Counted from the stretch's first letter, positions 53,125 through 58,000 are shown. The stretch: DNA of 64,000 nucleotides from an uncultured Planctomycetia bacterium (GCA_964423185.1 CAYRDK010000005.1:115930-179929), one strand, 5' to 3'. A program made the numbers and translations. Notes: generated from the sequence alone by a model not told the origin.

Positions 53125-54312
53125 TTAAACATTGCCATATCTTAAATCTTTGCCATCATGAGGCGACTGCCAAAATTTTCTAATCGCGTAATAACTTCTA
53201 CGCGGGATGCGTTCATCCAAGCCATCTGCACTCGGTTTAACCCCCACAATACCAAACCACTCCTCGTTCATATTCATATTGCGCTCAGCCTTGATGTCTA
53301 GATAATAAGAACCATTGGACCAGTTAGATTCTGTGTCATGAACCGCCCAACCGCTGGAATCATAATCATTATGCTTCCACCACTCATCGCTCCATTCAAA
53401 CATAACACCGCCCAAACAATTCCCTTCGCCTGAAGAATTCCCAGCGAGATTCTGATAAATCTCAGCCCATTGCGATTCCAAAAAGAAAGCCTGCATATCT
53501 TCATCTTCGCACTTTTGCTGCGCGTTATAAACGTCCGAACCAAATTCGATAAAAACAATAGGCTTATCATATATCTTCTTTAAAGAACTAAAACTATTAC
53601 CGAATGTTTTACCTCTATAGATAACACAACCGACAATATCAATATCGCCAGCCACTTCATGGGCGATATCAAGATATGCCAGCTCACCATTGCCCATCAC
53701 AACAGGATGATCAGGGTCAATCTTATGAATTTCACAAGCCAGCTCATTAACAAGGGAGTAATAGACCCTGGCCTTCTCAGCCAGGCGTTCCCGCGGGTCT
53801 TTAATAGCGTCCAGGCGTTCGCTTGACCAGGAGTTAATCTTGCCACTAAAAGAAAAGTTATTCTCATTTCCTAAGACCCAAAACAGGATACCTTCCTCAT
53901 CTTTTAAGGCCTCTACCATAGCCAAAACTTCTCGCTTTACGGATTTACGGAATTCTTCATCATCATAAAAAGGCGCGGGGTAATTCCAAAAATTAAGCCA
54001 ATGGCCCATCATGGTATGAACGCCGTAATTATGATAAAGATCCTGCACAACCTTTTTTACTTCTTCTAAATTCTGGCCGGCCTGATAAAAACGAACGGTA
54101 TTTACACCCATCTTTTTCATCATTTCGCCGTCTTTCTTCCATGGCTCTTGAGAATCAGCCCAAAAATTATAATCGTGTGTCTGGCCTATAGGAATAGGGT
54201 TATAACAAACACCTTTAACGATAAACGGCCTGCCAGCAACTATCAATTGATAGTGCCCGTTCTTTAGCATTTTAACATAAACTTTCTTATGGTTGGCTGG
54301 TGCCATTCCCAT
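53125..54312 (-). CDS. Clan GH-A (TIM-barrel) glycoside hydrolase with an ambiguous start codon
   Basis: RPFIVKGVCY, GVNTVRFYQ, the acid/base LGNENN, IYRG and the nucleophile region FIEFGSD, then GGVMFEWSDEWW, are present. In-frame ATGs occur at 54312, 54306 and 54429; see the heptamer finding. Confidence 0.75.
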   Translation of the reverse strand: MGMAPANHKKVYVKMLKNGHYQLIVAGRPFIVKGVCYNPIPIGQTHDYNFWADSQEPWKKDGEMMKKMGVNTVRFYQAGQNLEEVKKVVQDLYHNYGVHTMMGHWLNFWNYPAPFYDDEEFRKSVKREVLAMVEALKDEEGILFWVLGNENNFSFSGKINSWSSERLDAIKDPRERLAEKARVYYSLVNELACEIHKIDPDHPVVMGNGELAYLDIAHEVAGDIDIVGCVIYRGKTFGNSFSSLKKIYDKPIVFIEFGSDVYNAQQKCEDEDMQAFFLESQWAEIYQNLAGNSSGEGNCLGGVMFEWSDEWWKHNDYDSSGWAVHDTESNWSNGSYYLDIKAERNMNMNEEWFGIVGVKPSADGLDERIPRRSYYAIRKFWQSPHDGKDLRYGNV

Positions 54313-54318
54313 AAAAAA

Positions 54319-54398
54319 CAGAAGACAGAAGACAGAAGACAGAAGACAGAAAAACCTTCTTTTCTCCCATCTCCCATCTTCCGTTCTCTGCCCTCTGT
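54319..54398 (-). repeat. Tandem heptanucleotide repeats: (CTGTCTT)x4 plus a degenerate unit, then (GGGAGAT)-type units
   Basis: On the plus strand, (cagaaga)x4 and cagaaaa span 54319-54353, and ctcccat ctcccat cttccgt tctctgc cctctgt span 54364-54398. Confidence 0.7.
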
Positions 54399-55549: not shown

Positions 55550-55630
55550 TCTACACCTCCATTTAAGCTGTCCCACGCAGAAAAATAACAAACTACGCCC
55601 ATGTAATTGTTATCGTGCGACATTGCCATT

Positions 55631-58000
55631 TCATTTTTTCCACAACTTTTGATACTCGTAATACCCTTTTCTTAATTCCCGCAAAAACGGGCTTTTAGCG
55701 CCATCGCCCTGGCCCGCTACACCGAGCCATTCTTCATGCATGGACCCGTCCGGAAAAGGCCCTTTGAAAAGGCCTTTCTTATCATGAAAAGATGGTTCAT
55801 ACGCTTTCCACCACTCATCCAGCCATTCGAACAACACACCCCCGATAGCATTGCCGCAACCAGAACCAAACGCAGCATTATCCATAATATCTTCCCAATT
55901 GCCTTTTAGATACTCAGACTGGGCTTCCTCTGCTTCCTCCTGTGTCAAACCATAGGCAAAAGCAGGGCAACCATATTCCGTCACAAAAGCAGGCTTATCC
56001 GTTAACTCTTTAACAGATTCCCAATAAGACCCAAAACCACTTTCTCCCCGATAAACATTAGCACCAAACATATCAACATCAGGGCAATACTGGGCAAATC
56101 TATCCAAAAACAGTGTATCACCGCTGGCAATCGCGACCGGATGATTTTTATCTAAAGACTTAATTAAACGAGCCACTTTGTTAACAAACTTAAAGAAACT
56201 TTCAGGTTTCTTATCAGCATTACAGGCGACACCATAAACATTCTCATTCCCTAATAACCACGAAAGGACATAAGGTTCATCCTTAAACTCTTTTACCATT
56301 TTTTCAACAGAATCCAGCATAGCCTTCTGCTGTTCCTTGTTATCGTAATCTGTCCCATCAAACCAGGTCGCGCCAGAACCAATGGCATACTTCCCTAAAA
56401 AATCCCCCATAATAACACGGATACCATATCTTTTATAAAGATCCCGGAGAATCTTTTTATCTATTTCAAAAGGCTGATGATACACTCTGACCGTATTGAC
56501 CCCCAACTTCTTTAATAATTCAAAATCGCCGACGGAAGGCTCATTATGATCCTGTATCCCGTTGCTATTGGCATCAACAAACGCGTCATAAGGGCCATCG
56601 CATTTTCCATTATCGTTATAATCATATTCCATCCAGTTTTTTAAACTCCCATTATCCGGGCTCTGGCCGACTTTAGATACAGCGTAAGTGATCCCCTTAA
56701 TGATAAAGGGGCGGTTATCCACCAGCATCTGCCAATCTCCATTCTCATATTGGATAAAACGCACCTTCCCTTGCCCCAGCTTTCTCTTGATTTTTGTCTG
56801 CATAATCCTTTTATCAACATGCTTCTTAATCCTGTCAAAAAAAGTTTCCGGGATATTATTCTTTACAATCTTCCCTGGATTCGTAACAAAAGCGTCATTT
56901 GAAACATCATTATCATAGCCATTAATAACGCTGATTTTGGCATCAACCAAGCTCATATTTAACTGCGGGTATTTTGCACAAAGATACTTAATCCTGGCAA
57001 TAGCGGCCTGCCCCACATACCAAGGCGTGTGCCAATAGGTCCATCCGACCGTATGGGGAAAATGGACCACGGCCGCGTAATAAACTTTTATCGCGTGTTT
57101 AATCAATCCGGACTTCTCGAGGACTAGCCCCGTGTAAAATAACTTAATCCCATGGGGCTCAGAAGATATTGCCCATTTGATAAACGCCGCTTCCAGGTCA
57201 GGCGAATAGACAAAATCCCACTGGCTGCCTTCCAGGCGCTTCTCTTGCCTGACCTGACGGAATGCCGGATCCCAACGGACACTGGTTGTATTCGGATAAA
57301 TCCCTTCGCCAACAGCTTCCGACAAACCCTCTTGCGATTTTATAATATATTTATAATTCTCTGTACCGATCCCGACAAACTCTCCATATTTGGCATAATC
57401 AACAACTTCCTCTTTCCCTGAATCATAGAGCACAACCTCAGTCTTGGGGACACCCTGATATTTATCCTCTTCAGAGCTAGCCTTCTCTATGGCATCAAGC
57501 CCTTTCTCAAGCTTATCTAAAGTGGCCTGCGACTTTTCAGCAACTTTCCAATACCAACCGCGCGGATCCCACGCCTGCGCGAAAGAATAGTCAGAAAGAA
57601 TAAGATGGAATATTTTCTTAGCATCCTCTGTCTTATTCTCCTTTAAAAGCGCCTCTCCTTTGATAAAAAGACAAGTTGCCACATTATTTAACACATCATA
57701 GTTTTTTGTTTTTTCCGCGGCGGGAAAACTGTTTAAACTCTGCTGCTGCTCTCGCGCCTGAAGACCATACTCATCAACCATCTGTTGAGCAATAGCATAC
57801 ACTTTATCAGGCTCATTCTTGGCCAAAGCTTCCCAGCACTTTGCGACCGTCTCTGAAAGGCCTGCCCCGGGGGTTGGCTCGGATTGAACTTCAACAGCTT
57901 CCTGCGCATAAACAACTCTAGTAAAGGTAGTATTAAAGATAGAAAACATAAACACTGCCAAAGCACAACACTTGAAAATATTAAATTTTATTTTTTGCAT
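55631..58000 (-). CDS. Large secreted protein: helical N-terminal half plus a clan GH-A glycosidase domain paralogous to 53125-54312
   Basis: It has a signal peptide. The C-terminal half carries RPFIIKGITY, GVNTVRVYHQ, LLGNENVYG, VYRGE, FVTEYGCP and GGVLFEWLDEWW. Confidence 0.75.
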   Translation of the reverse strand: MQKIKFNIFKCCALAVFMFSIFNTTFTRVVYAQEAVEVQSEPTPGAGLSETVAKCWEALAKNEPDKVYAIAQQMVDEYGLQAREQQQSLNSFPAAEKTKNYDVLNNVATCLFIKGEALLKENKTEDAKKIFHLILSDYSFAQAWDPRGWYWKVAEKSQATLDKLEKGLDAIEKASSEEDKYQGVPKTEVVLYDSGKEEVVDYAKYGEFVGIGTENYKYIIKSQEGLSEAVGEGIYPNTTSVRWDPAFRQVRQEKRLEGSQWDFVYSPDLEAAFIKWAISSEPHGIKLFYTGLVLEKSGLIKHAIKVYYAAVVHFPHTVGWTYWHTPWYVGQAAIARIKYLCAKYPQLNMSLVDAKISVINGYDNDVSNDAFVTNPGKIVKNNIPETFFDRIKKHVDKRIMQTKIKRKLGQGKVRFIQYENGDWQMLVDNRPFIIKGITYAVSKVGQSPDNGSLKNWMEYDYNDNGKCDGPYDAFVDANSNGIQDHNEPSVGDFELLKKLGVNTVRVYHQPFEIDKKILRDLYKRYGIRVIMGDFLGKYAIGSGATWFDGTDYDNKEQQKAMLDSVEKMVKEFKDEPYVLSWLLGNENVYGVACNADKKPESFFKFVNKVARLIKSLDKNHPVAIASGDTLFLDRFAQYCPDVDMFGANVYRGESGFGSYWESVKELTDKPAFVTEYGCPAFAYGLTQEEAEEAQSEYLKGNWEDIMDNAAFGSGCGNAIGGVLFEWLDEWWKAYEPSFHDKKGLFKGPFPDGSMHEEWLGVAGQGDGAKSPFLRELRKGYYEYQKLWKK

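Follow-up and report, generated by a model that had tools for sequence, protein, structure and literature searches.

Two paralogous clan GH-A proteins nearest to GH158, predicted to be secreted β-glucan hydrolases, in a conserved importer locus of Omnitrophota

Two kinds of described locus break down β-glucan in a comparable way, namely the ATP-binding cassette (ABC) importer and phosphorylase loci of anaerobes and the 1,3GUL polysaccharide utilisation loci of Bacteroides. In both, one or more secreted endo-glycanases act with a glycan-binding protein, and import is followed by a cytoplasmic phosphorylase or β-glucosidase under LacI or ROK control. GH72 enzymes such as Gas1, Gas2 and Gel4 are fungal, glycosylphosphatidylinositol (GPI)-anchored and disulfide-rich, and often carry a CBM43 domain. 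GH158 (BuGH158, PDB 6PAL; GH158(Pro), PDB 9ORO and 9P25) is a bacterial clan GH-A family of the (β/α)8 retaining type, encoded in glycan-utilisation loci with binding proteins and an importer, and consists of a barrel and, at the C-terminus, an immunoglobulin (Ig)-like domain of eight strands that packs on the barrel and shapes the cleft (PMC7157763; PMC13195107). Here we describe two proteins, A and B, encoded in a 64,000-nucleotide stretch of DNA (the window) deposited as an uncultured Planctomycetia bacterium (GCA_964423185.1 CAYRDK010000005.1:115930-179929). An earlier note on this DNA had proposed that they are paralogous clan GH-A glycosidases with the motif order of fungal GH72 β-1,3-glucanosyltransferases. 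We found that A and B belong to clan GH-A, are not members of GH72 and have GH158 as their nearest characterised relative. On balance, we favour the view that they are secreted retaining β-glucan endo-hydrolases whose products pass to an ABC importer and then to a GH94 enzyme resembling cellobiose phosphorylase.

The minus strand of the window contains two open reading frames (ORFs) with clan GH-A barrels, A and B, and a third gene, M, between them. Paralogue A (55631..58000, minus strand) is a protein of 789 aa with a signal peptide at about residues 1-32 (...VVYA/QE), a TPR-like α-helical N-terminal region at about 33-400 and a (β/α)8 GH-A domain at about 405-789. Paralogue B (53125..54450, minus strand) has 441 aa in the public record (P0121, start at 54450, 100% identical to B) and has nothing upstream of its barrel besides a signal peptide with a long n-region (...KRRFFCLLSSVFCLLFFMGMAPA/N). 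The B ORF as listed covers 53125-54525 and encodes 466 aa from a TTG, but translation probably begins from an ATG at 54450 or from an alternative one at 54429, which would overlap the stop codon of M. A and B are 32% identical over about 410 columns (BLASTP, E 1e-54); this similarity is far beyond chance and they are clearly paralogues. All of the motif blocks that the earlier note had quoted were found in both proteins in identical order, in A at residues 430 (RPFI), 500 (GVNTVR), 584 (GNEN), 649 (VYRG), 674 (TEYG), 724 (FEWLDEWW) and 756 (EEWLG), and in B at 99, 140, 219, 302, 326, 376 and 421. A hidden Markov model (HMM) of the family picked up A and B, and no further copies, within the window.

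The predicted catalytic residues lie where clan GH-A enzymes carry them. In A, Glu586 (56243..56245, minus strand) of the LGNEN block at the end of β4 is the predicted general acid/base and aligns with the NE of GH158 and Gas1, while Glu675 (55976..55978, minus strand) of VTEYG at the end of β7 is the predicted nucleophile, paired in the alignments with the TEFG of GH158 and the SEYG of Gas1. The predicted acid/base of B is Glu221 (53863..53865, minus strand; LGNEN; numbering of the 466-aa ORF), and its predicted nucleophile is Glu327 of FIEFG (53545..53547, minus strand), which is aligned with Glu675 of A. All four positions were invariant in an alignment of 50 family sequences (alignment A1), and the residues conserved in 50/50 sequences were the Arg of NTVR, the Asn-Glu of GNEN, the Tyr of YRG, the Glu of TE[YF]G and the Trp of FEW. 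Since these hallmarks of the clan are invariant, both paralogues should, judging from sequence, be active retaining glycosidases. An AlphaFold2 model of the A barrel (residues 396-789) showed a (β/α)8 fold with a predicted local distance difference test score (pLDDT) of 86.6 and a predicted template modelling score of 0.89, and together with the invariant GNEN and TE[YF]G this bears out the proposed assignment to clan GH-A. Past β8 the model contains no more than some short helices, a loop that is disordered, a single short strand and a helix at the terminus; both proteins stop some 110-140 aa beyond the nucleophile and carry no other domain there, B being similar in length.

Two parts of A are absent from B. 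Between β1 and α1 lies an A-type-specific insertion (residues 440-486; 56543..56683, minus strand), in which two EF-hand-like loops (DYNDNGKCDGPYD and DANSNGIQDHNE) can be read. The insertion is kept in the A-type consensus and orthologues and has a pLDDT of 80-91 in the model, and its loops probably bind Ca2+; a Pfam scan of the insertion gave no dockerin or EF-hand match. The helical N-terminal region of about 370 aa gave weak TPR matches only, no PDB match and no Pfam assignment, and showed no similarity to the TPR protein encoded downstream.

Next we compared A and B with the known families. With Pfam, A matched GH2_C at 56.9 bits (gathering score 21; E 2.4e-15) and GH72 at 36.7 bits (gathering score 25.9; E 3.8e-9). 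The GH72 model, which the earlier note had put forward for checking, thus exceeds its gathering score in A, as it does in many A orthologues, but GH2_C scores higher, and in B both models stayed below their gathering scores (GH72 20.7 bits, GH2_C 17 bits). NCBIfam offered no usable family for A, B or the GH94 protein; its GH2 equivalogs scored 19-32 bits on A and B against cut-offs of 544-2000 (best 31.7 against 2000; GUS 25 against 544). Searched with phmmer against solved structures, GH158 was the top match for A (4.7e-15) as well as for B (1.9e-7), and no GH72 chain was found among the 44 matches of A at E<=1. A profile built from the 50-sequence alignment matched, in the PDB, GH158 (1.1e-19 and 2.2e-16), GH2 glucuronidases (2e-12), GH157 (2.7e-9) and GH5 mannanases (about 1e-7), and GH72 was absent from its best 60 matches.

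Structure comparison gave a similar ranking. Every top Foldseek match of the A model was a GH-A family: GH158 at 5.5e-15, GH2 at 4e-13, GH157 (LaGH157, PDB 9G5G and 9FZ9) at 2e-12, GH72 Gel4 at 5.6e-12, GH72 Gas2 at 3.6e-11 and GH5 at 1e-10, with GH72 in 14th place or lower. The comparison with Gas2 that the earlier note had suggested gave a match, but GH158 stood ahead of it. GH157, a clan GH-A family that is also labelled 'GH2 catalytic-domain', had the highest template modelling score (TM-score) on the query (TMq 0.63); it differs in its identity to A of 19%, its larger size (528-537 aa) and its architecture. With hhalign, the β4-β8 fragment of GH158(Pro), taken from printed alignments, matched the family profile at 99.3% probability (E 2.9e-20, 30% identity, 168 columns), whereas the equivalent fragment of Gas1 reached 65.6% (E 5.8e-5). 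Whole Gas1 gave 91.6% (E 8e-7) with both catalytic glutamates aligned (GNE with AGNE, TEYG with SEYG), which in Gas2 are E176 and E275. The Gas1 query sequence was validated as a GH72 protein by its scores of 529 bits with Gel4 and 459 bits with Gas2. The nearest characterised relative of A and B is thus GH158, clearly nearer than GH72, and GH2, GH157 and GH72 are more distant. A family of bacteria matches better than GH72, yet a significant match to GH72 persists, and the resemblance to GH72 is a genuine but remote homology at the superfamily level. A and B fit no existing family cleanly, as they are devoid of the accessory domains characteristic of GH158, GH2 and GH72+.

The relatives of A and B form a group of their own. 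Among 1.84e9 representative proteins, the family comprised 177 clusters of 50% identity at E<=1e-30, nearly all of Omnitrophota origin; relaxing the threshold to 1e-10 raised the number to 1167, and at 1e-3 it was 2232. Its own invariant blocks in the 50-sequence alignment are FEWxDEWWK and EEWxG. The 150 best representatives scored 137-549 bits to A and just 13-83 bits to the GH158 fragment, which argues for a discrete group and against a fringe of GH158. At least 791 homologues were listed for A, 1198 for B and 3893 for M, overwhelmingly from metagenome-assembled genomes (MAGs) of Omnitrophota. When each GTDB species was scanned through a single genome, we found at least 572 coding stretches, of which the best 80 were all from Omnitrophota, a few of them under automated 'Planctomycetia' labels. 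These data are best read as placing A and B, as paralogues of ancient origin, in an uncharacterised, essentially Omnitrophota-specific clan GH-A family, which would probably be a new GH family or a deep branch of GH158. In the literature searched we found no study of the family, no paper tying GH72 to bacterial clan GH-A and no mention of the locus tags; the locus is mentioned in passing in the literature on giant genes. Public records name the homologues 'GH2 TIM barrel-domain containing', 'beta-glucuronidase', 'endo-1,4-beta-mannosidase' (JGI) or hypothetical; the mannosidase label was discarded in view of the architecture and of a context with GH94 instead of GH130. Two distant members stand apart. 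The protein P0362 ('bacterium F11') bears true Dockerin_1 and EF-hand domains, and a 1039-aa member is found in a different glycan locus of a Spirochaetia MAG (GCA_029266095.1, locus L084 6220-17307), where its neighbours are a GH17-like gene (weak match), LacI, a CBM9 protein, a Big_2 protein, a solute-binding protein (SBP), two permeases and an unannotated protein of 1148 aa.

Three existing families could in principle claim A and B. Were they divergent but genuine members of GH158, they would be ordinary endo-β-1,3-glucanases (laminarinases) and nothing new at the family level. GH158 tops all four methods, and its N-terminal strand motif before β1, its NE acid/base and its TE[FY]G nucleophile align with those of A and B, with the local identity over β4-β8 given above. 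However, in both phmmer and the profile search the significant alignment is confined to β4-β8 and spans just 130-180 of about 380 residues, and over the whole of A the identity is 17-21% and the TM-score 0.5-0.58 (Foldseek). The cleft-shaping C-terminal Ig-like domain (PMC7157763) is missing from the A model, whereas A adds its helical N-terminal region and the candidate Ca2+-binding insertion, and the blocks FEWxDEWWK and EEWxG belong to the A/B family. None of the 150 representatives comes closer to GH158 than the bit scores above. The loci differ as well, with an ABC importer and GH94 in Omnitrophota here and SusC/D and GH3 in Bacteroidota there, and the GH94 protein is unlike laminaribiose phosphorylase. 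We therefore regard plain membership of GH158 as unlikely. The earlier proposal, that A and B are bacterial GH72-type β-1,3-glucanosyltransferases, would have them act by transglycosylation to remodel β-glucan in the envelope or coat of the cell itself, and the Pfam score in A and its orthologues, the E-values of about 1e-11 for Gel4 and Gas2, the alignment of whole Gas1 and a location near PilZ and giant surface-protein genes agree with it. The homology on which it was built is real, but GH72 ranks after GH158, GH2 and GH157, falls behind GH158 on equal hhalign segments and stays below its gathering score in B. No accessory feature specific to GH72 is present either: A and B have no GPI signal, no Cys-rich linker or C-terminus and no CBM43 (no Pfam match), and the genome is bacterial. 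The close association with importer, phosphorylase and sugar-repressor genes also favours catabolism over remodelling, and we hold the GH72 reading to be very improbable. We give as little credence to the public annotation, by which A and B would be GH2 exo-glycosidases (β-glucuronidase or β-galactosidase), in spite of the top Pfam match of A, the names given by NCBI and JGI and the glucuronidases found by profile and Foldseek. The N-terminal sugar-binding and Ig-like domains of GH2 are absent, as the N-terminus of A is helical and matches nothing and B has none; the equivalog scores are far under their cut-offs, B is below the GH2_C gathering score, and GH158 outranks GH2 everywhere. The GH2 exo-glycosidase identity was rejected on architecture and on the GH94 context, and A and B differ from GH2 enzymes in that they are probably polymer-acting and not exo-enzymes.

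Gene M (54410..55549, minus strand) lies between A and B inside the interval that the earlier note had flagged and was not mentioned there. It encodes 379 aa with a signal peptide and two tandem β-jelly-roll domains that resemble carbohydrate-binding modules (CBMs). The halves of M are 51% identical (E 1e-66), pointing to an internal duplication. Its AlphaFold2 model had a pLDDT of 86.4, and the Foldseek neighbours of the single domains were CBM30, CBM8, CBM11, CBM4 and CBM16 (TM-score on the target up to 0.66), of which CBM30, CBM11, CBM8 and CBM4 are β-glucan-binding folds. No Pfam family and no PDB sequence match were found for M, and NCBIfam gave a weak 'choice-of-anchor J' match only. Based on the modelled fold, M is probably the glycan-binding partner of the hydrolases. 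Among the best 120 of its 3893 matches the identity was 65-94%, with 79% to Candidatus Velamenicoccus archaeovorus, and M is among the most conserved proteins of the locus.

The gene order around A, M and B is conserved across the phylum. We compared the loci of the best 80 species genomes, labelling ORFs by BLAST against the window proteins and counting as denominators the loci with enough flanking sequence. The common order was PilZ-(GH94)-SBP-permease-permease-A-M-(B)-...-LacI. SBP and two permeases preceded A in 61/65 loci and M followed it in 71/72; B was present in 44/68, the coiled-coil protein in 50/54, LacI in 49/54, ROK in 33/54, the TPR protein in 28/54, GH94 in 24/50 and PilZ in 36/50. 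In a second variant of the locus, a protein resembling the N-terminal region of A takes the place of B, TPR and ROK. Ca. V. archaeovorus LiM, an enriched predator, has the full gene set and a GH116 gene; its locus tags were not found in the supplements of PMC12583861. GCA_028716625.1 (L001) likewise has the full set and GH116, and there a gene of 15,478 aa (giant ORF at L001 1-1651) and PilZ precede the locus. Compared with the anaerobe and Bacteroides loci described above, the enzyme family and M are unannotated here, and the locus is conserved throughout the phylum and often lies beside PilZ and giant genes.

The surrounding genes support the β-glucan-processing context that had been proposed, and both the GH94 gene and the oligosaccharide ABC importer were confirmed. 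The GH94 disaccharide phosphorylase (61581..64000, minus strand; Pfam Glyco_hydro_94 5.9e-107, GH94_b-supersand 1.1e-45) runs off the end of the window. Against the PDB it matched cellobiose phosphorylase (3qde) at 2.9e-128 (432 bits), chitobiose phosphorylase at 8e-107 (361 bits) and laminaribiose phosphorylase at 3e-43 (151 bits). Next to it are the SBP, a lipoprotein, of a CUT1-type ABC importer for oligosaccharides (60179..61552, minus strand; SBP_bac_1 3.1e-39, lipobox LTGC) and two permeases (59041..60114 and 58041..58982, both minus strand), assigned by BPD_transp_1 in orthologous loci and by synteny. The PDB matches of the SBP were generic CUT1 sugar SBPs (best 8e-22), from which its specificity could not be read. 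Downstream of B are a ROK-family regulator with an N-terminal winged helix-turn-helix (50097..51290, minus strand; Pfam ROK 5.4e-35) and a LacI-family sugar-responsive repressor (47496..48500, minus strand; Pfam LacI 1.6e-17, Peripla_BP_3 3.7e-35). The CUT1-type importer, a GH94 nearest to cellobiose phosphorylase, GH116 in sister genomes and the LacI and ROK regulators together point to β-glucan catabolism.

In the pathway that we favour, A and B would be exported, as suggested by the Sec-type signal peptides, read by eye, with which they, M and the TPR protein encoded downstream begin. They would cleave a β-linked glycan, most probably β-glucan, by the retaining double displacement of clan GH-A and presumably in endo fashion, using the predicted pairs Glu586/Glu675 in A and Glu221/Glu327 in B, while M would bind the polymer. 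The released oligosaccharides may then be captured by the lipoprotein SBP, imported through the two-permease ABC system and split in the cytoplasm, either by the GH94 enzyme that resembles cellobiose phosphorylase or, in sister genomes, by a GH116 β-glucosidase, with LacI and ROK as the likely controls. Several points weigh against this proposal. The TM-scores of the A model to all solved families are 0.5-0.63 at 14-21% identity (Foldseek), the export step depends on signal peptides judged by eye, and the activity of every family member is a predicted one. GH94 and GH116 are each present in part of the loci only. The clues to the substrate conflict: GH94 and the CBM-like folds of M lean to β-1,4- or mixed-linkage glucan, whereas the catalytic-domain relatives GH158, GH157 and GH72 act on β-1,3-glucan and the distant Spirochaetia member adjoins a GH17-like gene; we favour neither linkage. 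Finally, identities of 65-94% for M and 56-80% for A and B throughout the phylum are uncommonly high for enzymes accessory to catabolism, and a more specific role may lie behind them, for example one related to prey or to the cell envelope.

Such a role is the core of another explanation, in which A, M and B are the glycan-harvesting arm of the Omnitrophota predation apparatus and, jointly with the giant 'archaeovorin' protein encoded next to them, attack not environmental glucan but a glycan of the prey cell envelope. Its chemistry is compatible with that of the pathway above and the difference is in substrate and biology. In 26 of 47 PilZ-bearing loci the ORF upstream of PilZ was open to the edge of the locus, with up to 1696 aa visible, and L001 carries the 15,478-aa gene. 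Giant Omnitrophota genes mostly have pilZ, SBPs, transporters and glycosyl hydrolases downstream (West-Roberts et al., bioRxiv 10.1101/2023.11.21.568195), a neighbourhood that these edge-open ORFs match, and 'GH2' genes are reported to recur beside giant genes (2026 preprint, 10.64898/2026.06.07.730766). The phylum-wide conservation of the A, M and B set at very high identity and the dockerin domains of a distant member also agree with a predatory role. On the other hand, adjacency to giant genes is by itself no proof of functional coupling, and many loci have no visible giant ORF. In addition, we know of no prey glycan that matches a GH94 product. By analogy with relatives, PilZ and a giant gene would be expected beside the present window, which ends inside GH94 so that any giant gene is out of view. 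We therefore judge the predatory explanation unlikely, while the β-glucan pathway remains our preferred one. As a separate observation, edge-open ORFs of 1200-1700 aa were seen upstream of PilZ in, for example, loci L007, L008, L024, L027 and L044.

Omnitrophota are widespread, uncultured and ultra-small bacteria that appear to be host-dependent or predatory, and their carbon source has been inferred only as 'sugars'. A locus found with unchanged gene order in virtually all of the species genomes recovered, and adjoining giant genes thought to mediate predation, is an obvious candidate for their sugar supply, and its hydrolases are at present mislabelled in public records as GH2, β-glucuronidase or mannosidase. 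Showing what A and B cleave would define a new GH family, or a deep branch of GH158, with a new accessory architecture. It would also identify the ligand of the very conserved, unannotated M and make the question of the Omnitrophota diet testable with recombinant proteins. The interest of the family would rise if its target proved to be a prey-derived glycan. More tentatively, A and B might found a new CAZy family that is a sister of GH158 in clan GH-A and a hallmark of Omnitrophota. With M, they could then form the glycan-harvesting module of the giant-gene (archaeovorin) and PilZ locus and cut a specific β-glycan of prey or biofilm, whose fragments would be the chief source of sugar for these host-dependent nanobacteria; the paralogues would differ in specificity or mode of action. 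We offer this wider picture as a possibility that we rate below even.

Several further genes lie in the region. A secreted TPR protein of 554 aa resembling CpoB/YbgF (51394..53058, minus strand; Pfam TPR_6 3.3e-12; NCBIfam CpoB 2.7e-12, below cut-off) follows B, and a coiled-coil protein of 409 aa with an FlgT_C-like C-terminus (48618..49847, minus strand; weak Pfam matches only) adjoins LacI in related loci. Beyond LacI, an ORF of 342 aa at 46384-47412 matches no Pfam family; it is found again in some of the related loci, where HAD and CNNM genes come after it, as they do in GCA_028716625.1. An ORF of 351 aa at 45290-46345, also with no Pfam family, is acidic and of low complexity with a signal-like N-terminus. 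At the other end, the GH94 frame is open to base 64000 (63864-64000, EFIITNPATPTPWINYLTNEKY...), with about 45 extra in-frame codons upstream of the listed TTG. The TTG start at 63863 is thus an artefact of the window edge and the gene is not truncated.

Short repeats were observed at two of the signal peptides. The heptamer TGTCTTC occurs in tandem (54314-54348 and 61442-61469, minus strand) and encodes the hydrophobic cores of the signal peptides of B (FFCLLSSVFCLLFF) and the SBP (LCLLSSVL). At the junction of M and B, a terminator scan showed that this repeat pairs with an upstream purine-rich run (GAAGATGGGAGATGGGAGAAAAGAAGG) in a G-U-rich hairpin of 20 pairs (54381..54335); an inverted-repeat search with exact seeds found nothing at this junction. 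The hairpin could affect the translation of B or slippage. The motif TGTCTTCTGTCTTC gave 7 matches at <=2 mismatches, against 0.32 expected. Over the whole window (1-64000) the GC skew was negative in all 2-kb bins, and within the first 44 kb no more than two ORFs of >=200 aa were not on the minus strand. Among the housekeeping genes of the window are H+-PPase, FeoB, a POR subunit, a TonB-dependent receptor and UDP-glucose dehydrogenase. Together these features fit a chromosomal replichore of an Omnitrophota MAG.

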